64,000 nt of DNA from Gemmatimonadota bacterium (GCA_039591075.1 JBDHEI010000004.1:29537-93536), one strand, 5' to 3'. Counted from the first letter of the stretch, positions 5,942 to 23,504 are shown. Notes: a model not told the origin generated them from the letters alone. Numbers and translations are program-made.

Positions 5942-7089
5942 GGCGACTGGTAATGTACGGCGTGCTCGCCTGCGCGGCGATCGCGGTGGGACTGCTGCCG
6001 CCACGGGAGCCCGAGAGGCCGCGACCTCGGCCGCTGCCCCGCACGCTCGACCGCGCGTCGTGGCAACTCCGAACCGCGGTGGAGCGTTATCAGCTGCTCT
6101 CGCTCCGCGATTCGGTCGTACAGCTCGTGCAGGATGGCGCTGTCCCGTTCGGGGATTCCCTGGCGTTCCTGGTCGATCCCGAGCTGTCGGCGCACCATGA
6201 CTCGGTGGTTCGGGCGCTGGTGACGCGGGTGTGGCGCCGCATGAGCCCGGGTAACGCACGCACGCGGATGGTGGTTGTGGTGGATGTGGACACGAGTGCG
6301 GCCTATCGTGGGCTACCGAGGTACCCGACATACCGGCTGCGGGTCGATCACCTGACCCCGGAAGCTACCGACGGTACGACATGCGTTGCCGGGATCAAGA
6401 TCGGGTTGGGGGAAGCGCAACGGATTCGCGAAGGCCGTTCGCTGAGTCCCGCCGTCATTGAGCGGATTCGCGAACGTGCTGTCGGGGTGTGCGGCTTCTA
6501 TGCGGCGTTCGGGAGGCCTGGCAAAGGGGTCCGATCCTGGCTGCCACCGCGCAATTACGTGCCGGCCTCGGAGGTTTCGTGGACCCGCGATCCGCTCGCG
6601 GTCCCTCACGACCCGCCATATGCCGGATGGGGGGGGGTTCGGGGTCTTCACTTCGCGCTCGTCGGCTGTGCGGCGGGTGAACGGTCACGCTGTGGGGAGA
6701 TGCGCCGGCGCCTTCCCGGCGACGACCGGCTACCGGTACGCTGGGCCAACTTCGAGGTCGATGGGGTGGCGGTGCGTGCTGATGAATATGGCTCCTGGCG
6801 CGATCCACTTGGGCCCTCCCAGCGTTCGTACTTCGCCGCCATGGTCGCCCACTACGGCAGGGATCAGTTCGAGCGGTTCTGGACGTCCGACGCGCCGCTT
6901 GAGGATGCGTTTCTGGCAGCGACAGGTGAGTCCATCGACGATTGGACGATGCGCTGGACGCGTGCCGACTTTGGGACCCCGGCGCGTGGCTCGAAGCTGC
7001 GACCGGTGTCGGTATTCCTCTCGCTCGTGATTGCGGCTGTGCTTGTGGGAAGCGCTGGCCTGCTGTCTCACTTCCGGCAGGCGGCGTAG
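5938..7089 (+). CDS. Hypothetical bitopic envelope protein (paralogue family member 2)
   Basis: ATGA overlap with the upstream stop. N-terminal TM MRRLVMYGVLACAAIAVGLL and C-terminal TM VSVFLSLVIAAVLVGSAGLL. Conserved block FERFWTSDAPLEDAF...DDWTMRW is shared with the fragment at 9134-9472. Confidence 0.65.
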   Translation: MRRLVMYGVLACAAIAVGLLPPREPERPRPRPLPRTLDRASWQLRTAVERYQLLSLRDSVVQLVQDGAVPFGDSLAFLVDPELSAHHDSVVRALVTRVWRRMSPGNARTRMVVVVDVDTSAAYRGLPRYPTYRLRVDHLTPEATDGTTCVAGIKIGLGEAQRIREGRSLSPAVIERIRERAVGVCGFYAAFGRPGKGVRSWLPPRNYVPASEVSWTRDPLAVPHDPPYAGWGGVRGLHFALVGCAAGERSRCGEMRRRLPGDDRLPVRWANFEVDGVAVRADEYGSWRDPLGPSQRSYFAAMVAHYGRDQFERFWTSDAPLEDAFLAATGESIDDWTMRWTRADFGTPARGSKLRPVSVFLSLVIAAVLVGSAGLLSHFRQAA

Positions 7090-7093
7090 CCGC

Positions 7094-8827
7094 TCACGCA
7101 CGGCTGCGGCCGCATGCGTCGGCTTTCGTGATTGCCACCTCCAGATCGGTACGAGACGCGGAGACACCCATGGTGGCGGCGCGCTCGATAGCCACCCGCA
7201 ACTCTTCGATGACCGCCTCGGCCACGCGCAGTTCACCCTGCAGCGCGACTTGCCGCGACTCGACTTCGCTACGCTGCTGCGGGGTAGAGCGGGTGTGGCC
7301 GCCGTCATCCCTTTCCCCTTCCTCCAGCAGGCGGTCGAGGCGTCCGAGTTGGCGCGCCAACGCTCGGACGCGAGCCACGATGCGATCGGCACTTCCCACC
7401 ACGCCGGGAATGCGGTCGCGCTCCGATCGCGGCAGGTTGGTCACGAGCCCCGCAATCACCGCACGCTCGCTGCGCACCCGCTGTACCGTGTCCACATGGG
7501 TGCCGAACGCCCCCGATCGCGATCCGAGTGTGCCAGAGGTCTCGGTCGACACGGAACCGCTGGGCGGGCTGTCACCGCCACGCAGGATGTCACGCGGCGT
7601 GTAACCAGTTGTCCACAGGCGACCGTACCGAAACGCCACGGGGAGCAGCCACAGCGCCGCGATGAGCGGTGCGAAATCCAGCGCCTTGTTAGTAGCGAGG
7701 TCGATGGCGAGCAGGGCGGCGTTGCCCAGTGCGAACACGGCAACGGTCCGCCGGAACCGGGCCACCGGCGTGACTGGCAGGGTCGTCATGGTGCGGATCG
7801 CAGCGCGGACGCCCGTGGCACGCGGTACGGCGTACCCGCCCGTCGTCTGCGGCCGGAGCAGTGCACAGAGTTCCCCAGCCGAGGCGTAGCGATCGTCCGG
7901 CTCCTTCGCCAGGCAGCGCGTCACCGCTTCGGCGAGGTCGGCTGGGCAGTCCGGCCGTCCCAGAGTGACCGACGGAGCCTCCTCACTAATCAGTCTCACG
8001 ATGAGGCCCTGAAACGTGGCCGCTCGGAACGGCAGCTCGCCCGTCAGCATCTGGTAGGCAACCACGCCGAGCGAGTAGAGGTCGGACCGGTGGTCCACCT
8101 CCGCCTCCGCGCTTGCCTGCTCGGGACTCATGTAGTCGGGTGTGCCTAAGAGCATGCCGGTGCCCGTCAGGCCTTGGCCGTCCTCCGGTTGGGCTGCGCG
8201 CGCAATCCCGAGGTCGGTGACGAGTACGCGTCGCTCGTCGCCCTCGAGCAGGATGTTGTCGGGCTTCACATCGCGATGGATCATTCCGGCGCGGTGCGCG
8301 TGGTGCAGGGCACTGGCCGCCTCGAACAGAATTCGTCGCACCTCGTCGAGCGGGAGCTTCCCCTCTCGCTTGGCTCGTTGGCCGAGGGTTTCGCCGTGAA
8401 TAAGTGGCATGACGAAGTAGGCGAGGCCATCGCTCTCACCCACAGTGTAAATCGGCATGATGTTGGGATGCCGGAGCTGCGCCATCGCCTCGGCTTCGCG
8501 CCGGAACCGTTCTAAGAGCAGCGGCGAGGCGTGAAAATCGTAGCGCAGCGTCTTGACAGCCACTTCGCGCTTCAGGCGCACATCGCGGGCGGCATACACC
8601 TCGGCGAACCCGCCCCGACCGAGCAACGTCCCGATCTCGTATTGGTCGCCCAGGGCGTGCCCCAGTCGTCGCCGATGCAGCTCCGCCCCGGACGACTGGG
8701 ATGCAGTACCCGTGTCACCTCCACGAAGCACAACGGAGAGCCGCTCACTGCCGCACTCCGGGCAGTAGCGTCCCCGATCGGGAAGCTCAGCGTTGCAGAC
8801 GGGACAGCGTTGGACGAGTTCAGCCAT
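7094..8827 (-). CDS. Ser/Thr protein kinase with N-terminal zinc ribbon, TM segments and coiled-coil tail
   Basis: Zinc ribbon CPVCNAELPDRGRYCPECG. Kinase motifs VAVKTL, HRDVKPDNILL, DLGIA and PDYMSPEQ. Hydrophobic helices ALGNAALLAIDLA and LIAALWLLPVAF. Confidence 0.9.
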   Translation of the reverse strand: MAELVQRCPVCNAELPDRGRYCPECGSERLSVVLRGGDTGTASQSSGAELHRRRLGHALGDQYEIGTLLGRGGFAEVYAARDVRLKREVAVKTLRYDFHASPLLLERFRREAEAMAQLRHPNIMPIYTVGESDGLAYFVMPLIHGETLGQRAKREGKLPLDEVRRILFEAASALHHAHRAGMIHRDVKPDNILLEGDERRVLVTDLGIARAAQPEDGQGLTGTGMLLGTPDYMSPEQASAEAEVDHRSDLYSLGVVAYQMLTGELPFRAATFQGLIVRLISEEAPSVTLGRPDCPADLAEAVTRCLAKEPDDRYASAGELCALLRPQTTGGYAVPRATGVRAAIRTMTTLPVTPVARFRRTVAVFALGNAALLAIDLATNKALDFAPLIAALWLLPVAFRYGRLWTTGYTPRDILRGGDSPPSGSVSTETSGTLGSRSGAFGTHVDTVQRVRSERAVIAGLVTNLPRSERDRIPGVVGSADRIVARVRALARQLGRLDRLLEEGERDDGGHTRSTPQQRSEVESRQVALQGELRVAEAVIEELRVAIERAATMGVSASRTDLEVAITKADACGRSRA

Positions 8828-8939: not shown

Positions 8940-8997
<58 letters not shown>

Positions 8998-9011
<14 letters not shown>

Positions 9012-9565: not shown

Positions 9566-11113
9566 ATGTCCGATCCAACCGCCCAACCGCCTACCCGCCT
9601 AACCGCTGAACCGCCTAACCGCCTAATCGACGACTGCCTGTCGACGAGGAACGGGCATCTCTTCGTCGAACAGTGCGATACGACGGATCTGGTGAGCCGG
9701 TTCGGTTCGCCGCTGTTCGTGATCTCCGAAGACCAGCTGCGCCGTAACGTGCGCCGGTTTCAGGCCGCGTTTGCGAGCGGGTGGCCCGATGGGCCGGTCA
9801 AGGTGCTGCCGGCCGCCAAGGCCAACTGGATTGCTGCCGTGCAGCACATCCTTGCCAGCGAAGGCTGCGGTTGCGACGTCTACTCGGCCGGTGAGCTCAC
9901 GGTGGCCCTACGGGCCGGCTTCGAACCCCAATACATCTCGGTCAACGGTGTGCCGAAAGACGACGAGCACATCTACCGATGCGTCCAGGAAGGTGTGCGC
10001 ATCACGATCGACAGCGTGGAGGAAGTGGACGCCATCGAGCGCGCGGCGACAGCGCTCGACGGCGTCGCCACGGTGCGGCTGCGGCTCAAACCCGCGCTCG
10101 CCGGGTTCGTGCGACACAGTGAGTTCGTGGCAGAAGGACTCGTCCCCACCGACATTGCCGCCCTCGCCTACAAGGGCGGGCTCGCGTTCGACGACGCAGT
10201 GGCGGTCGGCCGCCGCCTGCTCGCGATGGAGCACGTCGAGCTGGTGGGATTCCACCAGCATCACGGCCGGCACCACCGGTCGCTGCGCTACTGGGAAGAA
10301 CAGATGCGTGCCTTTGCCGCCGAGATCGCACGCGTGTGCGAGGCCCTGGGTGGATACCGTCCCCGCGAGATTGACATCGGCGGCGGGTTCGCGATTCCGC
10401 GGGATCCGTTCAATGCCGTGACTGATTACACCGAGCCACTGCAACTCGCCGTGCTCCACACCCTGTCGAAAGGGCTTTGGGTGTTGGGGCGCCGAGGGCG
10501 GTACGGCGTTCTGCGTCAACTCGTCGATCTGTTCGCGAGCAAGCCGAATGAGACGCCGGCCCCCAGCATCGAGGACTACGCCCGGGTGTGCACCGAAACG
10601 CTGCGGGATTCGCTCCACCGCGTGGGGATCGCCACCGAGGGGCTGCTGCTCGAGCTCGAGCCGGGCCGCTCGATCCACGGTGATGCCGGGATCCACCTGA
10701 CGACGGTGCGGAGCATCAAGCGCATGACCCACCCGATTCGATTCAACCTGGTGGTGGTGGACAGCACCGAGTTCTGGCTCACGGGTGGGCGCTACGAACA
10801 CCACCTGCACGACTATGTGTTCGCCAGCAAGACGGACGCCCCGCTCGAGGGCAAAGCCGACATCATCGGGCGGAGTTGCTTTGGCGATCGCCTGATGCCG
10901 CTGGTCAGGGTCCCCCAGGTTGAGGTAGGCGACCTCCTGGCGCTGCTGGATACGGGGGCCTACCAGGAGGTCTCGACGAGCAACTTCAATGCGCTGCCCC
11001 GGCCAGCCACGGTGCTGGTCACGGGCGATCAGGCGGCGATCGTCCGGCGGGCGGAGACCGAGACCGACGTGCTCCGCCGGGACATCCTTCCGGCACACCT
11101 GGGGAGGGGCTGA
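9566..11113 (+). CDS. PLP-dependent decarboxylase, Orn/DAP/Arg decarboxylase (alanine-racemase fold) family
   Basis: PLP-Lys context LPAAKANW, plus IDIGGGFAIP, LEPGRSIHG and active-site Cys GRSCFGD. The ATG at 9566 is preferred over the TTG at 9485. At 515 aa it is longer than typical LysA. Confidence 0.85.
   Translation: MSDPTAQPPTRLTAEPPNRLIDDCLSTRNGHLFVEQCDTTDLVSRFGSPLFVISEDQLRRNVRRFQAAFASGWPDGPVKVLPAAKANWIAAVQHILASEGCGCDVYSAGELTVALRAGFEPQYISVNGVPKDDEHIYRCVQEGVRITIDSVEEVDAIERAATALDGVATVRLRLKPALAGFVRHSEFVAEGLVPTDIAALAYKGGLAFDDAVAVGRRLLAMEHVELVGFHQHHGRHHRSLRYWEEQMRAFAAEIARVCEALGGYRPREIDIGGGFAIPRDPFNAVTDYTEPLQLAVLHTLSKGLWVLGRRGRYGVLRQLVDLFASKPNETPAPSIEDYARVCTETLRDSLHRVGIATEGLLLELEPGRSIHGDAGIHLTTVRSIKRMTHPIRFNLVVVDSTEFWLTGGRYEHHLHDYVFASKTDAPLEGKADIIGRSCFGDRLMPLVRVPQVEVGDLLALLDTGAYQEVSTSNFNALPRPATVLVTGDQAAIVRRAETETDVLRRDILPAHLGRG
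9575..9630 (+). repeat. Tandem octamer array, right arm (about 7 units of CYAACCGC) inside the 5' coding end of the decarboxylase
   Basis: Reads ccaaccgc ccaaccgc ctacccgc ctaaccgc tgaaccgc ctaaccgc ctaatcga, starting 9 nt after the ATG at 9566. It encodes the 8-aa periodicity PTAQPPTRL/TAEPPNRL. Confidence 0.9.
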
Positions 11114-11138
11114 GCGGAGGAGCGTCTCTCCGCGCCCG

Positions 11139-11167
11139 GCTTCACGCCCGCTTCACACCAGCTTCAT
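11139..11167 (+). promoter_or_regulatory. Three direct repeats GCTTCAC/GCTTCAC/GCTTCAT phased at exactly 11 bp
   Basis: Repeats start at 11139, 11150 and 11161, about 55 bp upstream of the ATG at 11223. The arrangement resembles winged-helix response-regulator sites. Confidence 0.4.
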
Positions 11168-11222
11168 CGCCCGCTGGCGATAGGTGAGTCCTACTCTGCA
11201 AACACCCGTAGAAGGAGACGGC

Positions 11223-11459
11223 ATGGCACTCGTAGTGCGTGAGGAAGTCCGACGGTCCGCGACGGACTGCCGCAAAGAGCTGAGCTGCCTGGCCGGAGAC
11301 GGGACGGACCTGTGCCCGGTGAAAGATTGCGTTGCCGGCACGGTTCACTTCATCGAGTGCCGATCAGAGGGCTATTGCTCGTACAAGCAGGCGTTTGGTG
11401 ACGCCCCTCTCTGTAGCTGTCCGGTTCGCAAAGAGCTGTACCGCGCGTACCGGGTTTGA
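11223..11459 (+). CDS. Small 8-cysteine protein (78 aa), putative metal/Fe-S binding
   Basis: Good SD (gaaggagacggcATG). Cys at positions 16, 22, 31, 36, 46, 52, 64 and 66, with a terminal LCSCPVRKELYRAY motif. The family is not confidently recognised. Confidence 0.6.
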   Translation: MALVVREEVRRSATDCRKELSCLAGDGTDLCPVKDCVAGTVHFIECRSEGYCSYKQAFGDAPLCSCPVRKELYRAYRV

Positions 11460-11624
11460 GAGCCCGACAGGAGCAGGCGCCCATCTGGACTGCAGTAAAC
11501 CGCATAAGTGAGATATCCCGTTCCGAAGGCCGTGGCCTTGGGCGGCAGCGAATGCCTGGGCTCGGTTCCCAATCGGGCCCACTGAGCAGCGAGATGCCGG
11601 ATCGCGGAACGCCCTAGACTCCCG

Positions 11625-11746
11625 CTGACCAACAGGTCAGCTCCATGCGAGGCCTTTGTGGCTGGAATGCCCGGATGTGCTTCGGGTGCCAGCCGCGTTC
11701 GGCGTCGCGAGGGGCTACACAAGCGACGTACTGACCTCAGGGTCAG
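11625..11746. repeat. Two perfect 16-bp palindromes CTGACC-N4-GGTCAG, 106 bp apart
   Basis: ctgaccaacaggtcag at 11625-11640 and ctgacctcagggtcag at 11731-11746. A related CCGACC-N9-GGTCGG lies at 11856-11876. Confidence 0.7.
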
Positions 11747-11894
11747 GTGGCGGTAGCTGCTCCAACCGCGCTGGAAGTGTTGGCTCCACTGACCGGAGCA
11801 CCTACCCTTTGGCCTTTCGTGGCCGTCGCACCGGTCGTTGGCTCCGGGATAGAGCCCGACCGCACCCTCAGGTCGGTCCCCCAGAATCTGGCAG

Positions 11895-11933
11895 TTGACC
11901 AGATCTCTGTAACAAGTATCTTATCACCAAGAT
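11895..11933 (+). promoter_or_regulatory. Putative sigma70-type promoter and operator for the MarR-fusion gene; would give a leaderless or near-leaderless mRNA
   Basis: TTGACC at 11895-11900, a 16-nt spacer, then TATCTT at 11917-11922; the ATG is at 11932. An inverted repeat ATCTT-N6-AAGAT (11918-11933) overlaps the -10 and the start codon. Confidence 0.4.
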
Positions 11934-13965
11934 GAATAGCACTGAGGGGTCTGGCCGTCCTGGACCCACCCCAAGTGCGAACTCGGCCACGGAGTTCTGG
12001 GAGGTTTTGGCCCGGGCCCATGCCCTGGTTGAGGCCCGGGTGGCCGAGCATGCGAGCCGGCATGACCTGACACTTGCTGAGTTCGGTGCGCTCGAGGCGC
12101 TCAGCCGACAGGGCCCGATGTTGCTCGGCGAGCTCCAGCGCCACGTCCTGGTCTCGAGCGGCGGCATGACCTATCTGGTCGATCGGCTCGAGTCGAGGGG
12201 ACTGGTGACTCGGCAGCCGAGTCCCACCGATCGCCGGGCGCGGTTCGCGGTGCTGACCGAAGACGGGCAGCGCCTGATAGACCGGATTGCCCCGGAACAT
12301 GTCCGCGCCGTCGCCGACGCGGTCGGTGGTATGAGCGCCGCAGAGCAACGGCAGGCAAGCACGCTGCTGCGGGCACTGGGTCTGGGCGTGGCAGAACCTG
12401 AGCGAGCCGCCGCCGCTCCAGCCGCGGTACTGCCGGCGGAGCCTGTGGTGTTGACCCGACCGGCACCGGTGGCCGCACGCATCGAGCCCCCGCAACCCGC
12501 TCCACCGGAGGTCGCCCAGCCGGCCCCGGTCGAAGTCCCCCAGGAGCCCGAACCGGAAGAGCCGACCCGACCCGAGCCGGAGGAAGTTGCCGCGGGGGGG
12601 CCGGCACCGGCGTTGGCTCCGGAGGACGTGGAGTGGGTCGAGGCAAGCGAGCCTGTGCCGGACGAGGAGCCAGCGCTCTTGATCGGGCCGGAGACCACCA
12701 TCCTCGTTATCGACGACGACCGCAGCACCCGGAGGGTGGCCAAGTCGGCCCTGGCGGGCCCGGGCCGCGAGATCATTGCCGTCGATTCGGCGGCCGAGGC
12801 GGAGCGGGCGCTGGCGCGACACGACGTGGCGCTGGTCGTTCTGTCACTCGTGCTCCCGGACGCCGACGGCCGAGCTGTATACACCCGGCTCAGCCGCCAG
12901 CGGACCACCGCGGCCATTCCCGTGATCATGGTGGCCTCCAAGGTGGGCGAGCGGGCAAGGGTGGAGTGTCTCGGGCTTGGTGTTGCCGAGTGGTTCGAGA
13001 AACCGATCGACGGCGGGGCGCTGGCACAGGCGGCCGATGCATTGCTCGAAGGCGGCTTGGTCCCGATCGCGTCGTCGGCGGATCCGGTGACCGCGGCCCT
13101 GAATCGCGCCGCGTTCGCCGAAGCGTACGAGCGCGAGGTCACCGCCCGGACGGACGATCCGACACCCACCGCACTCGCACTGCTCGATTTGGACGCCATT
13201 TCCGCGGTGAATCGTGAGCACGGCCGAGACATTGGTGACCGCGTGCTGCGTCAAATACGCGAGCTCCTGTCAGGCGTCCTCCGTGATACTGACGTCGTTG
13301 CCCGCTGGCGTGACGATGAGTTCGTGGTGCTCTTCCCGCAGTCGGATCCGGCGACCGCGACGCGCCTGCTCACCAGGACACAGGCCCTGCTCACCACGTC
13401 GCCGCCTACCGCACCGGACGGGACCGAGATCCCGATCACGTTCTCCGCGGGGATTGCCACGGCCAGCCCGCTTACCTCGATGGAAGAGGCCGTGGCCACC
13501 GCCGATCGCGCGCTGAGCCGGGCCAAGAGTGGAGGGCCGTCCCGCGTCGTGTCCGTCGAAGACGAGTCCACCGAGGCCCCGACCACCGTGCTCGTTGCCG
13601 AAGACGATCGGGTCACGGCGACCCTCGTGCGGCATCGGCTCGAGCGGGCCGGGTTCGAAGTCGTACACTGTGAGTCCGGTACTCTGGCGCTCGAGGCGGC
13701 GGAACAAGTGGCGTTCGGTCTCTGCATTTCGGACATCCGGATGCCCGGACTCGACGGCTTCGAGCTGGTGAAGCGCCTGCGGGCGTTGCCGCAGTACGAG
13801 GCCGTGCCGATCCTGATGCTGACGAGCCTTGGCCGCGAGGAGGACATTGTGCGTGCGTTCAGCCTCGGCGCCAGCGATTACATGACCAAACCGTTTTCGC
13901 CCGTGGAGCTTCTCGCCCGGGTGCAGCGTTTGCTGCGCCGCCGAGTCTCCTCGTCGCCGGCATGA
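11932..13965 (+). CDS. MarR-type wHTH / Pro-Ala linker / pseudo-receiver / degenerate GGDEF (RDDEF, I-site RxxD intact) / canonical receiver fusion protein
   Basis: MarR sequence LTLAEFGALEALSRQGPMLLGELQRHVLVSSGGMTYLVDRLESRGLVTRQPSPTDRRA. REC1 is ILVIDDD...LVVLSLVLPDADG, with Ser at the phospho-Asp position. The GGDEF fold shows LNRAAF, LLDLDAISAVNREHGRDIGD, RDTDVVARWRDDEFVV and ADRALSRAKSGG. REC2 is VLVAEDD...ISDIRMPGLDG...YMTKPF. Confidence 0.85.
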   Translation: MNSTEGSGRPGPTPSANSATEFWEVLARAHALVEARVAEHASRHDLTLAEFGALEALSRQGPMLLGELQRHVLVSSGGMTYLVDRLESRGLVTRQPSPTDRRARFAVLTEDGQRLIDRIAPEHVRAVADAVGGMSAAEQRQASTLLRALGLGVAEPERAAAAPAAVLPAEPVVLTRPAPVAARIEPPQPAPPEVAQPAPVEVPQEPEPEEPTRPEPEEVAAGGPAPALAPEDVEWVEASEPVPDEEPALLIGPETTILVIDDDRSTRRVAKSALAGPGREIIAVDSAAEAERALARHDVALVVLSLVLPDADGRAVYTRLSRQRTTAAIPVIMVASKVGERARVECLGLGVAEWFEKPIDGGALAQAADALLEGGLVPIASSADPVTAALNRAAFAEAYEREVTARTDDPTPTALALLDLDAISAVNREHGRDIGDRVLRQIRELLSGVLRDTDVVARWRDDEFVVLFPQSDPATATRLLTRTQALLTTSPPTAPDGTEIPITFSAGIATASPLTSMEEAVATADRALSRAKSGGPSRVVSVEDESTEAPTTVLVAEDDRVTATLVRHRLERAGFEVVHCESGTLALEAAEQVAFGLCISDIRMPGLDGFELVKRLRALPQYEAVPILMLTSLGREEDIVRAFSLGASDYMTKPFSPVELLARVQRLLRRRVSSSPA

Positions 13966-13981
13966 CCGAGCGCATCTGACC

Positions 13982-15040
13982 ATGCCCCTGAACTTCGGCC
14001 TCGGTGAGCAGCTCCTGCTCTTTCTCGCAATCGGCATCGGGATCCTGATGCTGTTCGCGCTGGGTTTTGCTGGTTCGGTGGTGCTGCTCCGCCTGCACCA
14101 TCAACGTCGCGCCGAAAAGTGGAGCGTGCTGGAAGCCAAGTGGGAAGATGCGATTCTCGAGATGCTGGCCGAGGACCGCGATCCATCGACGGTTCACGCG
14201 CTCGTGGCGGAGGGCGACGAACTGTTCTGCGTGAGCTACATCATGCGCTACGCCAGCAGGCTGTCCGGTCCTGAGCGCGAGCGGCTGCAGGAGCTTGCCC
14301 GGCCGTACCTGCCGCTGGTCGTGCCGCGCGCACAGCATCGGGACGCGCGACGACGGGCACGCGCCGTGCGGACGTTGGGTACGCTGGGGCTTCCCGAATA
14401 TGGCGACATCGTCGCCGCCGCCCTCGGTGATGATTCGCCGTTGGTTTCCATGGTGGCCGCCCGGGCGTTGGCACGGGGTAAGGATCCCGACTACGTCGTA
14501 CCGGTGCTCGACCACCTCGATCGATTCACAGCATGGAGCCCGAACTTCCTGGCATCGATGCTCGCGAGCATTGGCCCCGGCGCGACGCCCGCGCTACGGG
14601 TGGTGTTCGCGGACGCCAAGCGCCCGCCCGAGGTGCGCGCCGTCGCGGCCACGGCCCTCGGTTACCTCAACGATCTCGCTGGTGGTGACATCGCCGTCCA
14701 GGTGCTCGCACTGGCGTCGGACCGTGAGCTGCTGGCAGCGGCGCTGCGCCTGATCGGCAGAGTGGGGCATCGGGACCATCGCTCGGCCGTGCTGCCGTTT
14801 CTCACGGCGTCTGATTTCTACGTGCGGGCCACCGCTGCGAGCGCGCTTGGCGGTGTCGGGGACAAAGAAGACCTCGAGCTTCTCCGGATCGCGTGTGAGG
14901 ACGACTCCCGGTGGGTCGCCATCCACGCTGCGCGCGCCCTGCGTGATGCGGGCGATATCAATTCGTTGCAACAGTTGGCTGCGTCGGGCGGGCCCCGCGC
15001 CACCCTGGCGTTGCAGGTGCTCTCCGAGGTGGGCGGATGA
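13982..15040 (+). CDS. Membrane-anchored HEAT-repeat protein
   Basis: N-terminal TM LLLFLAIGIGILMLFALGFAGSVVLL, followed by repeated HEAT/PBS-lyase-like units (ARAVRTLGTLGLPE, VSMVAARALAR, VRAVAATALGYL, VRATAASALGGVG, WVAIHAARALRDAG). Confidence 0.75.
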   Translation: MPLNFGLGEQLLLFLAIGIGILMLFALGFAGSVVLLRLHHQRRAEKWSVLEAKWEDAILEMLAEDRDPSTVHALVAEGDELFCVSYIMRYASRLSGPERERLQELARPYLPLVVPRAQHRDARRRARAVRTLGTLGLPEYGDIVAAALGDDSPLVSMVAARALARGKDPDYVVPVLDHLDRFTAWSPNFLASMLASIGPGATPALRVVFADAKRPPEVRAVAATALGYLNDLAGGDIAVQVLALASDRELLAAALRLIGRVGHRDHRSAVLPFLTASDFYVRATAASALGGVGDKEDLELLRIACEDDSRWVAIHAARALRDAGDINSLQQLAASGGPRATLALQVLSEVGG

Positions 15041-16542
15041 CGGGGACGGTGGGCGTCGTGCTCGTGCTGCTCGCCGCGTTCAACGGTCTCGTGCTCGTGT
15101 ATTTCGTCGTCCTGAACACGGTGTACCTCCTCACGAGCCTCATCGCGTTCCGGGACATCCGCCGCTACGTCGAGCGTCTCAAATCGCTGGACCTGGGAGA
15201 GTTGCTATCGTCGGAAGGCATTCCGCCGGTCACGATCATCGCGCCGGCATACAACGAGGAACCGACGTGTGTCGAGGCCGCACACTCCTTGCTCAGTCTC
15301 GAATACCAGCGGTTCGAGATCCTGTTCGTCAACGACGGGTCGCGGGACAACACGCTTTCGCGGATGCGGGAGGCGTTCGACCTCGTCCCCGCCGCGCGCC
15401 TGCCGACGGCGGACCTCGCCACCAAGCGGATTCGCAAGGTGTACCAGAGCAAGCGTCATCCCAATCTGTGGGTGATCGACAAGGAGAATGGTGGCAAGGC
15501 GGATGCGCTCAATGCCGGCGTGAACCTGTGTGTCACCCCGCTGTTCTGCGCCGTGGACGCCGACAGTTTGCTGGAACGCGAGGCGCTCACACGGATCGTC
15601 CGGCCGTTCCTGGAGGACCGGCGCACGATTGCCGCGGGTGGGGTGATCCGGATCGTCAACGACTGTACCGTGAGCGAGGGGAGCGTCACCGAAGTGCGAT
15701 TCCCACGGAACTGGTGGGCACGGTTCCAGGTGCTCGAGTATCTGCGCTCGTTCCTCGCCGGACGCATGGGGTGGTCGGTGCTCGATGCCACCCTGATCAT
15801 TTCGGGTGCGTTCGGCGTGTTCCGTCGGGAAACCGTGGTGGCGGCGGGCGGCTATGCGTCGCCCCAGACGTCCGGCGCGACTGTGGGGGAGGACATGGAG
15901 CTCGTGGTTCGGCTCCACCGGTACTGCCGCGAGCACAAGATCCCCTACCGGATCAGTTTTGTTCCGGACCCGGTGGCCTGGACCGAATGTCCGGAGACGC
16001 TTCGCGTGCTGGCGCGACAGCGAGACCGGTGGCAGCGCGGGATGGCCGAGAGCCTGATGCGCCACCGGCGCATGCTGTTCAACCCGCGCTATGGTAGGAT
16101 TGGGTCCCTGGCGTACCCGTACTTCCTGTTTCTGGAAACCCTGGGCCTCCTGGTGGAGATCGTGGGCTACGGCGCCTTTGTGCTGACATTGGCCCTGGGT
16201 CTCGTTTCGTACGTGCACGCCGCCGCGTTTCTGATGGCGGCGTTCGTGTTCGGGATGGTGTTGTCCATTGCGGCGGTCGGGCTCGAGGAGCTGGGCTTCC
16301 GCCGATACCCCCGGGTGTCGGATCTCTTGCGGCTCTTCGTGGTGGCCTCCGTGGAGAATTTCGGGTACCGACAGTTGATTTCCTTGTGGCGGCTGCACGG
16401 GCTGATCTCGGCACTGCGGGGCGTGCAAGGCTGGGGAGAAATGACACGAAAGGGCTTTTCGCCTTCCGGGCCACAGGGACCCGACAGCAGCGCGGCACCG
16501 CTAGACCGTTCACCGTCCACACGGAGGACAGGTGATGGCTGA
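15037..16542 (+). CDS. Processive family-2 glycosyltransferase (PgaC/IcaA/NodC/cellulose-synthase-like polysaccharide synthase)
   Basis: ATGA overlap with the HEAT gene. N-terminal TM, then [53 protein letters not shown] and the Q-x-x-RW motif RQRDRWQRG, followed by C-terminal TM helices. Confidence 0.88.
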
Positions 16543-18463
16543 CCGCCCGGCGCATAGCGCGGAGTGGGGTCTGATCTCCAAGGTGAGTCACGAGATCCGT
16601 ACCCCACTGAACGGACTAGTCGGGCTCGTGGAGCTTCTGCTCGATACCGATCTCTCCGCAGAACAGCAGCGATCCGTCGAGCTCATCCGGGTGTCGGCCG
16701 GCTCATTGCTCACACTGGTCAACGACATCCTGGACTTCACCAAACTCGAACGCGATCGGATCGAGCTGGAGGACGTCGCCTTCGACCTCGGTCAGCTCGT
16801 CGATTCCGCAGTCCAGTTGCTTCGGGTACGGGCATTCGAGCGGGGGATCGCGCTGAGTTACGAGATCGCCCCGGAGGTTCCCCGTGCCGTCCGCGGCGAC
16901 CCCAGCCGACTCCGTCAGATCCTCACCAACCTGATTGGCAACGCCATCAAGTTCACGAGTGAGGGCGGCGTCTTCGTGCTCGCCACGACACAACTCAGCC
17001 GCAGCGCTCGCACGGCGGTCCGCTTCGCGGTGCGTGATACCGGCATCGGTATCCCGCCTGACAAGCTGGAAGCGATCTTCGAGGAGTTCACACAGGCCCA
17101 AGTCAGTGTGTCGCGGAAGTACGGCGGAACGGGCCTCGGGCTCCCGATCGCCCGTAAGTTGGCACAGTTGATGGGCGGGGATCTCAAGGTGACGAGCGAG
17201 GCGGGGAAAGGAAGCGAGTTCGCATTCACGGTCTCGCTGAAGCAAATCGACGAGCGAATGCTGGAGGTGGTGTCGCCGGCCACAGTCCCACTGGACCGAC
17301 TCCGCGTACTCGTGGTGGACGGGAACCCGTCGAGCCGTGAGTTCATTCGGCAGACCCTCGGTGAGGCCGGGGTCACGGTGCGCGTGGCCCCGAGCTTGGA
17401 GGAGGGCTACACGGAACTGCATCGGGCCAGGATCGCCGGTGAGCCCATGCATTTCGCCATTCTCGACGCATGGCTGGACCGACAAGACGGCTTCGAGGTG
17501 ACCCGCCGCATCCGGAATGACCCCGACCTGTCCGAGACCCGCGTCATGATTCTCGCGGCCCGAGGCGAGCGCGGCCATGGTCAGCGTTGTCGGGAGGTGG
17601 GTGCTCAGGCCTACTTCACCAAACCGATATCCGAGAAGGAGCTGTTTGGCGCGATTCGTACGGTGATGGCGGCGAGCCTCGAGGATCTGGTCACGCGCCA
17701 CTCGATTGCCGAGAGCCGACGCCGCTTGCGCGTGCTGGTGGCAGACGACAATGAGGTGAATCGCCAGCTCGCGTCGATCGCCCTGACGAAGCGCGGTCAC
17801 CAGGTGGACCTGGTGGAGCACGGGGGACGGGCCGTCGAGGCGGCTGGGCGGAACCGGTATGACGCGATCCTCATGGATGTCGAGATGCCGGAAGTCGACG
17901 GGATCACCGCCACGGCCCAGCTCCGGAAGATCGAGTCGACGGTCGATACACCGATCATCGCGATGACCGCGCACACCGAGTTCCGCGGGTCCGACGCCTT
18001 TTACGGAAGTGGGTTCACGGCCTTTCTATCCAAGCCGTTTCGGCCCCAGGATCTGGTGCGCGTCGTGGAGGAACTGGGAACGGAGCGAGAGGCGGTGACG
18101 ACGGCATCGGCAGACCAGACCGCACCCGTCGAGCTACACGAGTTCCGACGGGTGATGCGCGAGGCTGGCATCGAGGACACGGCCGACAGCATCCTCGGTG
18201 TGTTCCTCGCCGATGCACCGGGACGGATGCGCGAGCTCGAAGAGGCCGTCGGGACCGGAAATGCGGTGGCGATCCGGGCGGCGGCGCACGCTTATCGATC
18301 GGCGGCCGCGACGGTGCGAGCCGAGAGCCTTGCCGCGTTATTGAGTCACGTGGAATCGGCTGCGACGACCGCGAACCTGGATCACGTGAACGAGGTGCTG
18401 CCCCAGTTGCGCGGGGAGCACGAGGCGGTGATCGCCTACCTCCGGGACGTGGATACCCGGTAA
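16532..18463 (+). CDS. Hybrid histidine kinase without a sensor domain (HisKA-HATPase-REC-REC-HPt)
   Basis: The ATG overlaps the GT2 3' end by 11 nt. The H-box [10 protein letters not shown] lies only ~20 aa from the start. Also GNAIKFT, DTGIGI and YGGTGLGL; REC Asp contexts FAILDAW and [13 protein letters not shown]; HPt [13 protein letters not shown]. Confidence 0.9.
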
Positions 18464-19196: not shown

Positions 19197-20786
19197 CTAG
19201 AAGGCCCAGCTACCGGACACCGTGACGGCCACGTAGCGGTAGCCGGCTCCGCCGGTGGAAAAGCTCTGGAGGCCCGCGTTGGAGTAGAGTGCGGAGATGC
19301 CGACCTGCCGGCCGGGGGAGAGGTCGTACGCGGTCTGTAGTGACAGCCGGATCGTGGCGTGTGGATCCCACGTCGATGTGATCTGCTCGAGCCCCGGTGC
19401 CGCTTCCCCCGTGACGTGCCATGGTCCGCGCAGCGGCCGCCAGCGGGCGATCGCCTCGGCATGCAGGTACGAGTTGGGATCGAAGTACCCATCCTGGAGA
19501 TTCTTTTCAAAACCAAAGGCGCGGACCCGCGCCGCCGCGATCCAGGAAGGTGTAAGACGACGAGTGCCGGCGACGTAGCCCGCGAGTCTCCTGTTGGCCT
19601 CGCTGCCTCGGAAGTCCGCGTACGAGAACCCGCCCTCCAACTGCCACAGACGCCAGGGTTCCGCGCGTAAGCTCGCGGCGCCTTGGGTGTACGTCACTCC
19701 ACTGTCGATCATGAGCGCCGTGGCGTCGAACGCCGAGTGGCTGAACGTGAGGGAGCCGCCAATCGGGTTTCGCGCAGGGCTCGCGATGCTTGCGTGCACC
19801 GCCGGTTCGGTCACCGCGGCCGCGCCGTTCGATCCGGAAGCACCGACGCCGAGCCCGACGGTCCAGCCAGGCTCGGCGAGATACCGCCCCGTCGCCACGA
19901 GCCCCCACGCCTGGCGGTCCACGGTGGGCTCGTTCCAGGCCGCGTGCCGGTAGTAGCTGTCGAACCCCATCTGGAATCGTGGCACGACGGGATACGTGCC
20001 GCGGAGGACGACGGTCGCGATGCGTTGTTCGTCTGAGTCGGCCTCGTAGGTGAACGCCGGGCGAACCCAGGGTCCGATCGCCGCGGCGATCGAGCGACGC
20101 TCCTCGCCGTAGTCGCGCGTCCCGCGTCTGTCGGGCGGAATGCGCTGCAAGGTCTCGAGCGCCGCGGCGGGTCGCCCCTGCCAGCGAAGCGTTTGCGACA
20201 GCCCGATGAGGGTGGTGGGATCCCCCTCAGCCATGGCATCCACCGCGCGCCATCGTTCCTCGGCCCCGAGGAGATCACCCTGCCAGGCGGTGATGCGGGC
20301 TATTCCCTGGAGAGCCTCGATGTCGGCGGCGTTGGAGGCGATGAGGTCCGCGTAGATGGCGCGGGCCGAATCGAGATCGTCGAGCCACGCCGTCGTCTGC
20401 GCGAGCCCGAGCCGCACCGAGCGGTTGCCCGGCGACCGACGCAGCATCGCCTCGTAGGAGGCCACGGACTCACGGAGCCGTCCTGCCCAGGCCAGGACCC
20501 TGGCGCGGTCGATCTGGGCTTCGATGTGTTGCGGGTTGAGCGCAAGGATGCGGTCGAACAGGGCCAGGCTCGCGGCGTAGTCACCGTCCCACGCTACCAT
20601 CAGCGCCATCCGATGGAGCGCCAGCGCGTCGGTGGAATCGGTGGCGAGCCGTTCGGCGTAGAGTTGCCGAGCCGTATCGATGTCGCCGCTGGTCCAGGCC
20701 ACGTCGGCGGGGTGCTGCGCCCACCCGGTGGTCGTGACCGAGGCAAGCAGGATTGCAGCCAAGGACGCGAGCCGGAGCAGTCTCAT
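19197..20786 (-). CDS. TPR-repeat plus C-terminal beta-barrel outer-membrane protein (PgaA/BcsC/PelB-like export porin)
   Basis: The ATG at 20786 overlaps the upstream stop (ATGA). Signal MRLLRLASLAAILLASVTTTGWAQ. About 270 aa of TPR with a recurring AW.G motif, then alternating beta-strand sequence ending YVAVTVSGSWAF (terminal Phe). Confidence 0.75.
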   Translation of the reverse strand: MRLLRLASLAAILLASVTTTGWAQHPADVAWTSGDIDTARQLYAERLATDSTDALALHRMALMVAWDGDYAASLALFDRILALNPQHIEAQIDRARVLAWAGRLRESVASYEAMLRRSPGNRSVRLGLAQTTAWLDDLDSARAIYADLIASNAADIEALQGIARITAWQGDLLGAEERWRAVDAMAEGDPTTLIGLSQTLRWQGRPAAALETLQRIPPDRRGTRDYGEERRSIAAAIGPWVRPAFTYEADSDEQRIATVVLRGTYPVVPRFQMGFDSYYRHAAWNEPTVDRQAWGLVATGRYLAEPGWTVGLGVGASGSNGAAAVTEPAVHASIASPARNPIGGSLTFSHSAFDATALMIDSGVTYTQGAASLRAEPWRLWQLEGGFSYADFRGSEANRRLAGYVAGTRRLTPSWIAAARVRAFGFEKNLQDGYFDPNSYLHAEAIARWRPLRGPWHVTGEAAPGLEQITSTWDPHATIRLSLQTAYDLSPGRQVGISALYSNAGLQSFSTGGAGYRYVAVTVSGSWAF

Positions 20787-23362
20787 CGTCCCGCCACGCG
20801 CTCGTCGAGTCGGGAGAACACTCGCTGCATCGCATCGAACACGGGCCGGCGTCGCGCCCGCCAGCGCGGCTCGTCCCACGGCTCCCAGCGGAACTGGGCA
20901 ACCGGTGCGCGGCCGACGGGCCACTGCTGCCACGACCCGTCGGCGAAGCGGGCGGCGGCGACCATCCCGATCGACTCTATCTGTCGCGGGACGAACCCGT
21001 CGGCCGTGTCCGCAGTGCTCGAGAGCACCTGCAAGCTGCTTGGATCGACGACGTTGATGAGTGTCCATGGAATCCGGATCTCCATGATCCCCGATGCGGA
21101 ATCTACCTCCCAGAAGCCGTCAGGCGCCGCCCCGGCCGGCAAGACACTCCGGTCGTAGCCCACGGCGGCGTATTCGGTCCGGTCGCGAGCGAACCGACGC
21201 CGGTTGATGATGACCCGCAGCGAATCGTACCGCGTGTCGTCACGGCGCTTGGTCCGGAGCGGCAGGTTGTAGTGCTGCAGGTACGGCCCGACGAACATTC
21301 CCGGCGGCGGGCTCGTGACCGGCGGCACGGTCACCGGCTCCTTGAGCACCGGTACCCGCTCGATCTGGAACGGGTTGGCGTTGGGGTCGGCGAGCACCCG
21401 TACCTCGTTCGGCGTCGCCACGATGGCGAACTCCACACCGATGGGCAAGCGTACGTCGGCCTTTCCGGGCCAACGAGTGGTTCCGGCCTTGCGGTCGACG
21501 ACATCCAGTCCCACGAGGAGCGTGTCCGGCAGCCCGCGCCCGCCCGGATCGAAGCAAAGGTGGAGATACGTCTCGTCGGCGAGGGCGCGAAGCGCCTCCC
21601 CGTACAGGCCCGGCACAGTCTGCCACCGGGGGAGTCGGTCGGCGAGCGTCGATCCATCCAGGCGCGGCACGGGCTCGATGGCGATCACGCCGTACTGCTG
21701 CTCCGCGTTCAGGCGGCTCAGCCAGAAGCGGGCGCGGTCGCGCGGCAACTCGAGATCGATCACCACCCAGTTCTTCTTGAACCACTCGTCGATCCACGCG
21801 AAGAGCATACCACCAGCCATACCCACCTCGTGGATCAGAGCGGTTGACTCCGCGTCGATCCGCGCCTTCTCGGCCTCGGTATGGCCGCCGTGGTGCCAAC
21901 CGGTGTCGGAGAGGTGGGCCAAGCCCAAGCTCGCAGGGACGCCGTACTCGGCGATCACGACCGGCATGTCCCGGTGGTGCTGCTTCAGTCGTCTGAGGTA
22001 CCGGGCGTATCCGCCGCCCACCACGATGAAGTCGGGGTAGTAGGGATAGGCGTGATAGGACGCGAACACGCCGGCGCGGAACGCCTCGGTCGCCCGCATG
22101 AGGTTCGGGTCGATGGCGACGAGGTCATTGTCGTACTCCTGAGGTACGTACGTGGTGTCCCCGCCAAGCGATTTGCGAATCGCGAGCTCTTCGGCGACGG
22201 TGGTCTCGGTTGGGTGGGTCAACGGGTCGAGTGTGGGCCAGCTCGTGTAGGCCACCGGTCGCTGGTGCCGGTACGTCTCGCTCTCGTAAGCAATGATCCG
22301 CTCGGAGATCTGCGTGAGCCACACGTCCATGGCCGTCCCGCCCTCGATCGCGAGGTACGCGCCGTGCCACGAGGAGCGGTTCGGATGGTTGAGATTGAAG
22401 GTGTCGACCGCGAACGGCTCCCACTCCCGGCCTAGGATGTAGGCCAGTGTCCATCGGGATACGTCGGCGGTATAGAATCCAGACGTGTGTCCGGGTCGGG
22501 GAGCGATGTCCGCACGGCCATGGATCAGATCCACAACGTACTGCATCTCGTCCGAGAACTGCTCGTTCCAGGCCGGGTCGTCAAAATCGTGATCCGGGGG
22601 TAACTCCGCCCACACGCCGTGCACCAACCACAGTGGTCGGTCGGTATGCGTCCGGTTGTGCTCCGCGAGCGCCTCATAGAAGTGCGGTGGGTGAATCGTA
22701 TAGACCCGAATCGTGTTGGCTCCCATCTCGGCGATCTCGGCGATCCAGCCCGCGTAGGTCAGCGAATCCGGAAACTGGCTCGGGAATCGGCCCGGCAGCG
22801 CGGCGCCAAGGTTCACGCCCTTGATGTAGAACGGTCGCCATCGGCCGCGGGCGGCCACCTCAAACCTGTCCCCGCAAGTCCGTGACGCCAGCACGAGGGT
22901 GTTGGGTACCTCGAGCGGGGCCCGGACGGGTGGTGTGCCCAGTCGATCGAGTTGCTCGCGCGCTTCGGCGTGATCGGGTGCGAGGGCGAGCACCTGGGTG
23001 AAGAGCCGGCGGGCCTCCCGCCCGTTTCCTCTCCGGGAGGCGACCAGCCCGATCCCTTGGAGCGCGTCTACGGTCTGTGGCGCGTGTTGCAGCGCGCGTT
23101 CGAACTGCCGGCGGGCCTCGACGAGCCGATTCCCTCGCAGATACCCGTATCCGGCACCGACGGTAGCACCGAGGTGCGCGGGGCAGCGCCGTAAAGCCTC
23201 TTCGAAGACTTCCGTGGCGTCGTCAATACGGTCGTTACGGTACAGCTTCCAGCCACGCGCGACCCTGGTGTCCGCTGCCAGCGGACAGGGTGTGTCGTCC
23301 TGAGAGGAGCAGGCAGCGGCAACGAGGAACACGGCGAAGGCCGTGGAGCGTAGGGCATTCAT
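20783..23362 (-). CDS. Lipoprotein with N-terminal TPR domain and a large TIM-barrel glycoside-hydrolase-like domain
   Basis: Signal/lipobox MNALRSTAFAVFLVAAACSS; an alternative ATG lies at 23380. TPR block in residues ~30-190. GH-A-clan-like strands FYIKGVNLG, GANTIRVYTIHPP, WLVHGVW, VVIAEYGVPAS and FAWIDEWFKKNW. The GH family is not assigned. Confidence 0.7.
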   Translation of the reverse strand: MNALRSTAFAVFLVAAACSSQDDTPCPLAADTRVARGWKLYRNDRIDDATEVFEEALRRCPAHLGATVGAGYGYLRGNRLVEARRQFERALQHAPQTVDALQGIGLVASRRGNGREARRLFTQVLALAPDHAEAREQLDRLGTPPVRAPLEVPNTLVLASRTCGDRFEVAARGRWRPFYIKGVNLGAALPGRFPSQFPDSLTYAGWIAEIAEMGANTIRVYTIHPPHFYEALAEHNRTHTDRPLWLVHGVWAELPPDHDFDDPAWNEQFSDEMQYVVDLIHGRADIAPRPGHTSGFYTADVSRWTLAYILGREWEPFAVDTFNLNHPNRSSWHGAYLAIEGGTAMDVWLTQISERIIAYESETYRHQRPVAYTSWPTLDPLTHPTETTVAEELAIRKSLGGDTTYVPQEYDNDLVAIDPNLMRATEAFRAGVFASYHAYPYYPDFIVVGGGYARYLRRLKQHHRDMPVVIAEYGVPASLGLAHLSDTGWHHGGHTEAEKARIDAESTALIHEVGMAGGMLFAWIDEWFKKNWVVIDLELPRDRARFWLSRLNAEQQYGVIAIEPVPRLDGSTLADRLPRWQTVPGLYGEALRALADETYLHLCFDPGGRGLPDTLLVGLDVVDRKAGTTRWPGKADVRLPIGVEFAIVATPNEVRVLADPNANPFQIERVPVLKEPVTVPPVTSPPPGMFVGPYLQHYNLPLRTKRRDDTRYDSLRVIINRRRFARDRTEYAAVGYDRSVLPAGAAPDGFWEVDSASGIMEIRIPWTLINVVDPSSLQVLSSTADTADGFVPRQIESIGMVAAARFADGSWQQWPVGRAPVAQFRWEPWDEPRWRARRRPVFDAMQRVFSRLDERVAGR

Positions 23363-23504
23363 CGGGAAGTGCCGAAGCATAGACGTGGGTCCGGTGCTGG
23401 GCAATCACCGGCTTGCCCTCCGCCGAGTCTGGCCGTTAGCGTATGGGTTGACGGACGACGCGAGCGCTTGCGCCGCCGCCTTCCCCCCGAGCGCGGAGCA
23501 CTTG

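Follow-up and report, generated by a model that had tools for sequence, protein, structure and literature searches.

We describe here a gene, at positions 11932..13965 on the + strand of a 64,000-nucleotide stretch of DNA from a Gemmatimonadota bacterium (GCA_039591075.1 JBDHEI010000004.1:29537-93536; the whole stretch is referred to below as the window), whose 677-residue product carries a DNA-binding MarR domain, a long linker, a pseudo-receiver (REC1), a degenerate GGDEF domain and a canonical receiver (REC2) in an open reading frame (ORF) with no internal stop. The host is an uncultured Gemmatimonadota bacterium, and the gene heads a polysaccharide-synthesis operon. The reading that we favor, at a probability of about one half, is that this fusion is a signalling transcription factor contained in one polypeptide and heading its own exopolysaccharide (EPS) operon, where it would read both the phosphorylation of REC2 and the level of cyclic di-GMP (c-di-GMP) at the inhibitory site (I-site) of the degenerate GGDEF domain. 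The fusion is conserved and narrowly distributed; its architecture and evolutionary context are well supported, and from these we infer its functions.

Architecture and integrity of the fusion protein

Domains were assigned with Pfam at its curated cut-offs and with an AlphaFold2 model built from 18 family sequences, for which the mean predicted local distance difference test score (pLDDT) is 78.8. In Pfam, the families MarR and MarR_2 match residues 44-103 (E 2e-15), Response_reg matches in two stretches (E 4.5e-44) and GGDEF matches 383-535 (E 7.5e-29), each clearing its cut-off by a wide margin, and the model sets the domain limits at 16-148 for MarR, 152-252 for a low-confidence stretch, 255-373 for REC1, 383-541 for GGDEF and 552-674 for REC2. 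A preliminary description of the locus had proposed the order MarR, pseudo-receiver, degenerate GGDEF and receiver, and this is upheld by Pfam and by alignments to PleD and CheY.

The MarR winged helix, which provides DNA binding and dimerization (residues 16-148, 11977..12375, + strand), scores 57.2 bits against MarR_2 (cut-off 27) and 53.4 bits against MarR (cut-off 24.6), and has the wing motif PTDRRARFAVLTEDG. In the model its helices lie at residues 16-42, 48-60, 65-71, 76-88, 110-132 and 136-148 and its strands at 92-96 and 104-108, with pLDDT values of about 80-92, such that the six helices and the beta-wing make up a complete alpha1-alpha6 fold. This completeness depends on translation from the ATG at 11932, as the annotated 641-residue form of the protein truncates helix alpha1. 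Standalone MarR proteins of 150-175 residues, which are abundant in Gemmatimonadota and automatically named '2-MHQ and catechol resistance regulon repressor', are 55-65% identical to the domain over its full length and share both the fold and the intact wing motif; this level of identity suggests that the fusion is fairly recent. The standalone repressors are single-domain proteins that presumably sense a ligand or oxidation, whereas in the window protein sensing would be given over to a 420-residue two-component and c-di-GMP module. A MarR domain 56% identical to that of the window is also found fused to a subtilase (Peptidase_S8) in P0024, a 536-residue JGI protein.

Between MarR and REC1 lies a disordered linker (residues 152-252, 12385..12687, + strand; pLDDT <50). 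Described earlier as a Pro/Ala/Glu segment of about 100 residues, it measures 101, of which 65 are Pro (25), Ala (21) or Glu (19). A linker of this length is confined to the closest relatives, the others having about 20-40 residues. An origin by tandem repetition is ruled out, no tandem DNA repeat having been found in the linker DNA.

A homologue search of 5.8 billion clustered proteins, with clusters taken at 90% identity, returned P0001, which is 100% identical to the window protein and annotated at 641 residues, and 11 more clusters that share its MarR-REC-GGDEF-REC content. They derive from NCBI, JGI, ENA and Logan assemblies, and those that are named are Gemmatimonadota. In all 12 clusters the ORF is unbroken and the linkers differ in length by whole codons, which excludes a frameshift or assembly join; the gene is thus one and not two.

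Public gene calls begin at an internal GTG or at other codons, yielding proteins of 641, 652, 615 or 450 residues (P0001, P0002, P0008 and the cluster members P0426-P0431) that lack part of MarR helix alpha1 and are named 'diguanylate cyclase (GGDEF)-like protein' or 'response regulator'. Both the public start and the public name are probably wrong: a conserved promoter, described below, and conserved N-terminal residues that form helix alpha1 support the ATG at 11932 as the true start. A consequence for annotation is that proteins labelled 'diguanylate cyclase' very probably are not cyclases and are listed with truncated N-termini.

The degenerate GGDEF domain, its receivers and their origin

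The GGDEF domain (residues 383-541, 13078..13554, + strand) aligns to that of Caulobacter crescentus PleD in a phmmer alignment that is ungapped and of high confidence through the critical stretch. The motif RDTD (residues 451-454, 13282-13293) falls on PleD R359-D362 and RDDEF (residues 460-464, 13309-13323) on GGEEF 368-372, the two being spaced by five residues just as their counterparts are (vlRDTDvvarwRDDEFvvlfp in the window protein, nvRAIDlpcryGGEEFvvimp in PleD). The replacement of GG by RD in the signature of the active site (A-site), and an RxxD motif in register five residues before it, were both features of the preliminary description, and the alignment bears them out. Arg482 (13375-13377) is the equivalent of PleD R390 and PelD R402, so that the window protein has all three I-site residues. 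PleD D327, N335, D344, R366 and E371 are kept as D419, N427, D436, R458 and E463; K332 is replaced by Ser424 and the equivalent of K442 is a Gly. Superposition of the modelled domain on GGDEF structures with bound c-di-GMP gives about 1.8-2.2 Å.

The same pattern can be followed through the degenerate clade to which the protein belongs, using 20 sequences and ranking 159 GGDEF positions by conservation. D454 is present in 19 of the 20 (rank 15) and R451 in 18 (rank 27). The first glycine of the A-site hairpin is replaced by R, Q or E in all 20 and the second by D, E or A in all but one, which has G. The cyclase signature of this lineage now reads R(D/E)DEF. All 20 have D419 and D421 (PleD D327 and D329) and R458 (R366); D462 and E463 each occur in 19 sequences, N427 in 18 and D436 in 16; at the K332 equivalent there is Ser, Ala or Glu, and the K442-equivalent position is not conserved. 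Judged by these residues, cyclase activity has likely been lost, binding of c-di-GMP at the I-site is plausible, especially for the window protein with its three residues, and binding of GTP or another nucleotide at the A-site is possible.

REC1 (residues 255-373, 12694..13050, + strand) was aligned to CheY and PleD. It is modelled as a (beta-alpha)5 receiver fold without the phospho-accepting Asp and aligns to the adaptor domain D2 of PleD. CheY D12/D13 correspond to D261/D262 and K109 to Lys357, whereas D57 is replaced by Ser305 (12844-12846) and T87 by Ala335. The acidic pair, the Lys and the Ser at the phospho-Asp position therefore stand as first reported; the Ser of IMVAS, which had been taken for the conserved Ser/Thr, occupies instead the position of CheY A88. 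On this alignment REC1 is somewhat more degenerate than first described, the acceptor Asp and the switch Thr/Ser both being gone. Across the degenerate clade this acceptor is replaced by S, G, A or N; canonical relatives have Asp. A gene for a Ser/Thr protein kinase with an N-terminal zinc ribbon (7094-8827, - strand) lies 3-5 kb upstream of the regulator, and Ser305 was considered as a target of such a kinase; this was rejected, as the orthologues carry G, A or N at that position.

REC2 (residues 552-674, 13585..13953, + strand) has equivalents of CheY D12/D13, D57, T87 and K109 in E557, D558, Asp601 (13732-13734), T631 and K653, in agreement with the full set of phospho-acceptor residues attributed to it earlier, and it is the best-conserved domain among orthologues (59-98% identity). 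In orthologues whose MarR domains are 62-68% identical to that of the window protein, the GGDEF domain and REC1 are 46-63% and REC2 59-81% identical. We conclude from this that purifying selection acts on all four domains and that REC1 and the GGDEF domain are not decaying.

The origin of the signalling module is indicated by a profile hidden Markov model of the family, run exhaustively against 1.84 billion representatives at 50% identity. Only one of them (P0007) matches across the MarR part; the next approximately 140 matches are proteins of approximately 510 residues, and all seven of those scanned are HPt-REC-GGDEF-REC proteins, HPt being a histidine phosphotransfer domain. These are annotated as PleD-like and are found, for example, in Fibrobacteria. 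Among 149 representatives, 74 have a canonical GG(D/E)EF, 71 of which keep RxxD, and 75 are degenerate. The REC1 Asp is lost in 18 of the 75 degenerate members versus 2 of the 74 canonical ones, and about 143 of the 149 retain that of REC2. On the strength of these matches, the C-terminal 420 residues derive from a widespread family of HPt-REC-GGDEF-REC diguanylate cyclases; in the window's clade the HPt has been lost and is supplied now by a neighboring kinase. Loss of the Asp from REC1 thus goes together with a degenerate GGDEF, which is most simply read as a history in which phosphorylation of REC1 formerly activated catalysis, and in which the REC1 phospho-site was left unconstrained when catalysis was abandoned, while REC2 kept its role.

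DNA-binding domains have joined such modules independently. P0376 (a 680-residue protein on a Logan contig) has an ArsR-type winged helix-turn-helix (HTH_5), a Pro/Ala-rich linker, GGGKF at the A-site and a retained RDSD, and P0319 (from a Gemmatimonadota metagenome-assembled genome (MAG); locus L013, 9001-11103) has a BTAD/SARP-type domain and AGAEF; in both, the N-terminal DNA-binding domain stands on a degenerate HPt-REC-GGDEF-REC module. P0319, which sits among metabolic genes, and the canonical relative P0021 are both in contexts unrelated to the EPS locus, so the link to that locus is specific to the degenerate clade. In a collection of 185,579 species-representative genomes, scanned with short query peptide patterns that find close relatives only and so under-count divergent fusions, a close full-length relative occurs in just two uncultured Gemmatimonadota/Gemmatimonadales MAGs.

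Promoter, operon and surrounding genes

A sigma-70-like promoter, TTGACC-N16-TATCTT (11895..11922, + strand), ends 9 nt before the ATG at 11932 and is the sole promoter-like site in 11100-12100 (shuffle mean 0.1). The pattern TTGAC(G/C)-N16-TA(T/C/G)CTT with an ATG 9-11 nt downstream recurs in the window and at seven orthologue loci whose proteins are 51-91% identical, and an eighth locus, L009, in which only the -10 element was inspected, has a matching -10 element and ATG; the DNA around the shared promoter is not conserved. Its distance from the start codon implies that the mRNA of the fusion gene would be leaderless or nearly so.

Overlapping the -10 hexamer and the start codon is a partial palindrome, TATCT-N8-AGATG (11917..11934, + strand). 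With no more than one mismatch allowed, each of the nine MarR-fusion loci has a single match to TATCT-N8-AGAT(A/G) over the -10/start, and the MarR-less loci L001 and L003 have none; the window has one extra match that is probably due to chance (shuffle mean 0.2). MarR autorepressors typically bind at a position over the -10 and start. The conserved promoter and the palindrome are confined to MarR-fused genes. Together they suggest autoregulation, and we consider 11917-11934 to be a candidate autoregulatory MarR operator, confounded with the constraint on promoter and start. As the element occurs only at the gene's own promoter, no regulon beyond its own operon can be proposed. The operator-like inverted repeat previously noted within 11880-11935 is present as ATCTGG-N7-CCAGAT (11886..11904, + strand), overlapping the -35 hexamer. 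It is kept in L004 and L005 and partly in L010, and is missing from L002, L006, L007 and L008; being conserved only in near relatives, it was rejected as an operator.

Upstream of the regulator is a non-coding gap of 470 nt (11460-11931). No riboswitch, for c-di-GMP or another ligand, was found there at the Rfam gathering threshold, the only matches being sub-threshold chance ones (E<=1). A hairpin in the gap, GCTGACC-AACA-GGTCAGC at 11624-11641, shows compensatory changes in L010 (ACTGGCC-GGCA-GGCCAGT); it has no Rfam match and no T-run after it.

Downstream, and also on the + strand, the regulator is followed after 16 nt by a gene for a membrane-anchored HEAT-repeat protein with one N-terminal hydrophobic helix (13982..15040), the conserved partner across loci of the gene that comes next, with a 4-nt overlap, and encodes a processive family-2 glycosyltransferase (GT2; 15037..16542). 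The GT2 is a multi-pass membrane protein with DAD, GED and QRDRW motifs, corresponding to the D, DxD, ED and QxxRW signatures; it scores 126.9 bits against the PgaC/IcaA model TIGR03937, below the cut-off of 422.3, has only distant N-terminal matches among solved structures, and gave no PilZ or other c-di-GMP-binding domain in a Pfam scan. The last of the four genes, overlapping that of GT2 by 11 nt, encodes a sensor-less hybrid kinase of the form HisKA-HATPase-REC-REC-HPt (16532..18463).

The kinase has no sensor or transmembrane region and begins about 13 residues ahead of HisKA, and its first receiver is partly degenerate, DG taking the place of the acidic pair and Ala that of the Thr/Ser; it may accordingly serve as a relay that takes its input from another kinase. 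Wherever a locus extends far enough, the hybrid kinase is next to the regulator or in its operon, and this conserved linkage makes it the likely phosphodonor for REC2. The preliminary description had placed the HPt-bearing kinase adjacent to the regulator: the two do share an operon, but in the window the HEAT and GT2 genes intervene. The link of the regulator to an EPS synthase and to an HPt-bearing hybrid kinase is conserved across genomes.

Beyond the kinase gene lie genes for two TPR proteins of the conserved EPS locus (19197..23404, - strand; about 530 and 865 residues in homologous loci, the raw ORFs overlapping), a peptidase S58 and an SSF transporter. Every sufficiently long locus shows a recurring set of a peptidase S58, a (REC)-HEAT-GT2-TPR-TPR module with TPR proteins of about 860 and 530 residues, and a (MarR-)REC-GGDEF-REC gene, its REC1 and GGDEF degenerate, followed by an optional HEAT-GT2 pair and the hybrid kinase. 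In L002, L006, L007 and L009 it is the kinase gene, and not HEAT-GT2, that comes immediately after the MarR fusion. In L001, where the regulator lacks MarR, a second HEAT-GT2 pair has its start in overlap with the regulator's stop, and the hybrid kinase is followed by a CHASE8-HAMP hybrid kinase and a REC-HD-GYP gene just downstream. A paralogous EPS module, in which a standalone REC precedes HEAT-GT2-TPR-TPR, is present in L001 (872-3803), L002 (728-3712) and L006 (2631-5615); L001 holds both modules, different lineages keep one or the other, and in the window's lineage the TPR pair is inverted relative to L002 and L006. The standalone REC was considered as a close paralogue of REC2 and rejected, as at about 30% identity it is no closer than the kinase receivers.

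Other genes of the window can be noted briefly. A small Cys-rich ORF at 11184-11459 (+ strand; probable start 11223) encodes 78-91 residues with about eight Cys and no Pfam family, and in L004, L005 and L010 it keeps its place, flanked by the MarR fusion and an Orn/DAP-decarboxylase-like gene. A tRNA gene (8940-9011, + strand) lies 3-5 kb upstream of the regulator, and ORFs within 4192-7089 have no Pfam match. Signalling genes are densely clustered at 29769-51306; among their products are two HisKA kinases, of which one has GAF, a hybrid kinase of the form PAS-PAS with REC-REC-HPt (38484-41264), a 1315-residue multi-PAS HisKA_3 kinase and a 1179-residue multi-PAS hybrid kinase; none of the large ORFs scanned there has a GGDEF, EAL or PilZ domain.

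Predicted mechanism, alternatives and known systems

On our favored reading, Asp601 of REC2 would be phosphorylated through the HPt of the co-transcribed sensor-less hybrid kinase, and the inactive GGDEF domain would bind a dimer of c-di-GMP at its I-site in the way that PopA and PelD do. Either signal, or both, would alter the association of the C-terminal modules and thereby the dimer geometry, avidity or availability of MarR; because the linker is flexible and 20-100 residues long, self-association or sequestration is likelier than rigid allostery. The outcome would be that binding is relieved or strengthened at the site that covers the -10 element and the start in the promoter of the gene itself. 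The fusion protein probably autoregulates the EPS operon, and since in the window the regulator heads it, such autoregulation would also govern the HEAT, GT2 and kinase genes. In favor of this reading are the domain assignments and residue register, the unbroken ORF in 12 clusters, the intact MarR wing, the family history, the retention of R451 and D454, the conserved operon with its overlapping stop and start codons, the lack of a c-di-GMP-binding domain in GT2, the REC-HD-GYP gene at the L001 locus, the confinement of promoter and palindrome to MarR-fused genes, and the independent ArsR and BTAD fusions.

Several observations weigh against this reading. RxxD is missing from two of the 20 members of the degenerate clade, P0008 (itself a MarR fusion) and P0013, and the R390-equivalent position is K or R in only 14, the six non-basic cases all falling in the MarR-fused subgroup P0007-P0012. 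In the wider family RxxD is kept in only 44 of the 75 degenerate members (59%), the BTAD fusion P0319 has lost its I-site, and within the degenerate clade the A-site residues are as conserved as those of the I-site. MarR-less orthologues (P0013-P0020) occupy the same position in the locus, from which it follows that the REC-GGDEF-REC module has a function not needing DNA binding. Lastly, the conserved upstream element is fully explicable as a -10 hexamer and start site, and the TATCT-N8-AGAT element was found at none of the other EPS promoters of the loci examined.

The erosion of RxxD, seen also in the 31 degenerate relatives that lack it and in P0319, together with the variability at the R390-equivalent position and the standing of REC2 as the most conserved domain, would suit a MarR-type response regulator controlled by phosphorylation only, in which the degenerate GGDEF domain and the pseudo-receiver are leftover dimerization scaffolds and c-di-GMP is not sensed. 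We regard this as a real possibility, though not the one we prefer, for R451 and D454 are among the best-conserved GGDEF positions even while the neighboring GG was replaced, the window protein has all three I-site residues, and the EPS locus is of a type typically under c-di-GMP control with a synthase that has no receptor domain of its own.

The main output might alternatively be post-translational, the REC-GGDEF-REC module docking on HEAT-GT2 and activating it in the manner of PelD, YdaK and PssE, with MarR a late addition for feedback. The MarR-less proteins at the same locus position, the overlap of the regulator's stop with the HEAT-GT2 start in L001, the standalone REC ahead of HEAT-GT2 in the paralogous module, the lack of a PilZ domain in the synthase and the confinement of the palindrome to the gene's own promoter are all in its favor. 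We nonetheless consider it unlikely, given that in L002, L006, L007 and L009 the fusion is followed by the kinase and not by HEAT-GT2, and that the standalone REC is no nearer to REC2 than is a generic receiver. This view is compatible with transcriptional control by the fusion and not exclusive of it, and a combination of the two can be imagined, although we think it rather improbable: a bifunctional switch in which the resting MarR domain represses its own operon until phosphorylated REC2, c-di-GMP or both cause the module to dock on and activate HEAT-GT2, titrating MarR off the promoter and so derepressing synthase and kinase. In that case the independently arisen ArsR and BTAD fusions would point to a larger, unrecognized class of effectors that bind DNA and have an inactivated HPt-REC-GGDEF-REC cyclase as their core.

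A further alternative is that the A-site is still used, either to bind GTP or another nucleotide as a regulatory ligand or, through R(D/E)DEF, for weak cyclase activity. GTP is reportedly a regulatory ligand of the GEDEF domain of Caulobacter PdeA. Residues corresponding to D327 and E371, which bind Mg, to R366, and to N335 and D344, which contact guanine, are retained in the clade, and active non-canonical motifs such as AGDEF are on record (PMC3974145). The replacement of the hairpin glycines, the first in all clade members and the second in all but one, the change of K332 to Ser, Ala or Glu and the lack of conservation at the K442-equivalent position make this improbable in our estimation, and the activating REC1 has lost its phospho-site along with the motif, as expected once catalysis had become irrelevant. 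Finally, the artefactual joining of a MarR gene to a REC-GGDEF-REC gene by an assembly or frameshift error, which the existence of MarR-less homologues and the disordered, low-complexity linker might have suggested, is effectively refuted by the continuous ORF in 12 clusters from four sources, by linkers that differ by whole codons with no internal stop, and by the lack of a separate MarR gene beside the MarR-less homologues.

The protein is a rare combination of well-known parts that, as far as the literature was searched, has not previously been described. Searches on MarR with GGDEF, winged helix-turn-helix with GGDEF, MarR c-di-GMP effectors and Gemmatimonas c-di-GMP yielded no description of the architecture, and this, with the single matching representative among 1.84 billion, accords with the earlier impression that the domain order was not a described one; searches on HEAT, GT2 and TPR EPS systems likewise yielded no description of this locus type. 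Such domain shuffling is common in bacterial signalling proteins, and c-di-GMP reaches transcription through many unrelated factors. VpsT, FleQ, BrlR, BldD, MrkH and Clp share the predicted logic, in that the level of c-di-GMP controls DNA binding at biofilm or EPS genes, and to our knowledge none of them senses through a GGDEF I-site. Indeed, we know of no described factor that uses an inactivated GGDEF I-site as the sensor of a DNA-binding protein, nor of a MarR protein that takes two-component phosphorelay input. If the favored reading is true, a compact single polypeptide integrates a phosphorelay and a second messenger at a promoter, and a first regulatory handle is gained on an uncharacterized, conserved HEAT-GT2-TPR polysaccharide system of the Gemmatimonadota, a common and barely studied soil phylum. 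A 2025 catalogue of c-di-GMP effectors has no MarR entry (PMC12564702).

Among known proteins, PopA and the EPS receptors of the PelD type come nearest in predicted function. PopA (Caulobacter crescentus CC1842), a paralogue of PleD, is likewise a c-di-GMP effector with REC domains and a GGDEF domain in which the A-site is degenerate and RxxD intact (PMC12564702). It differs in being a REC-REC-GGDEF proteolysis adaptor with no DNA-binding domain, whereas the window protein has the order pseudo-REC, degenerate GGDEF and REC, an N-terminal MarR and an EPS operon context. PleD itself is the best match in sequence and structure; it has a non-phosphorylatable adaptor REC just before its GGDEF domain and matches the window protein in its I-site residues, RxxD and R390, and in their spacing of five residues from the A-site motif, but it is an active GGEEF cyclase with a phosphorylatable REC at the N-terminus. 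Against the PleD NCBIfam model NF007135 the window protein scores 210.3 bits, below the cut-off of 474, and the domain order differs. Viewed in this light, the protein amounts to a PleD-like module that has been permuted and inactivated and has gained a MarR domain.

YdaK and PssE are I-site receptors that serve EPS synthases and have a degenerate GGDEF domain, and PelD is another. The 2025 catalogue names PelD as a c-di-GMP receptor of the GGDEF type (PMC12564702). All three resemble the window protein in having an inactive GGDEF domain with RxxD encoded beside a polysaccharide synthase that lacks a receptor domain of its own, and differ in being membrane-bound or GAF-linked, in acting on the enzyme, and in having neither a REC nor a DNA-binding domain. 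Physical coupling of a GGDEF protein to a DNA-binding regulator, by which c-di-GMP status is passed on to transcription, is found in DgcM-MlrA of Escherichia coli (PMC3715855) and DgcY-HhmR of Halomonas (PMC12421958), in which the partners are separate polypeptides, the cyclases are active and the regulators are of the MerR or LysR type; in the window an inactive GGDEF domain is instead fused covalently to MarR. If our reading is true, the window protein would constitute a natural 'Rosetta-stone' fusion backing the non-covalent pairs of GGDEF protein and transcription factor in E. coli and Halomonas.

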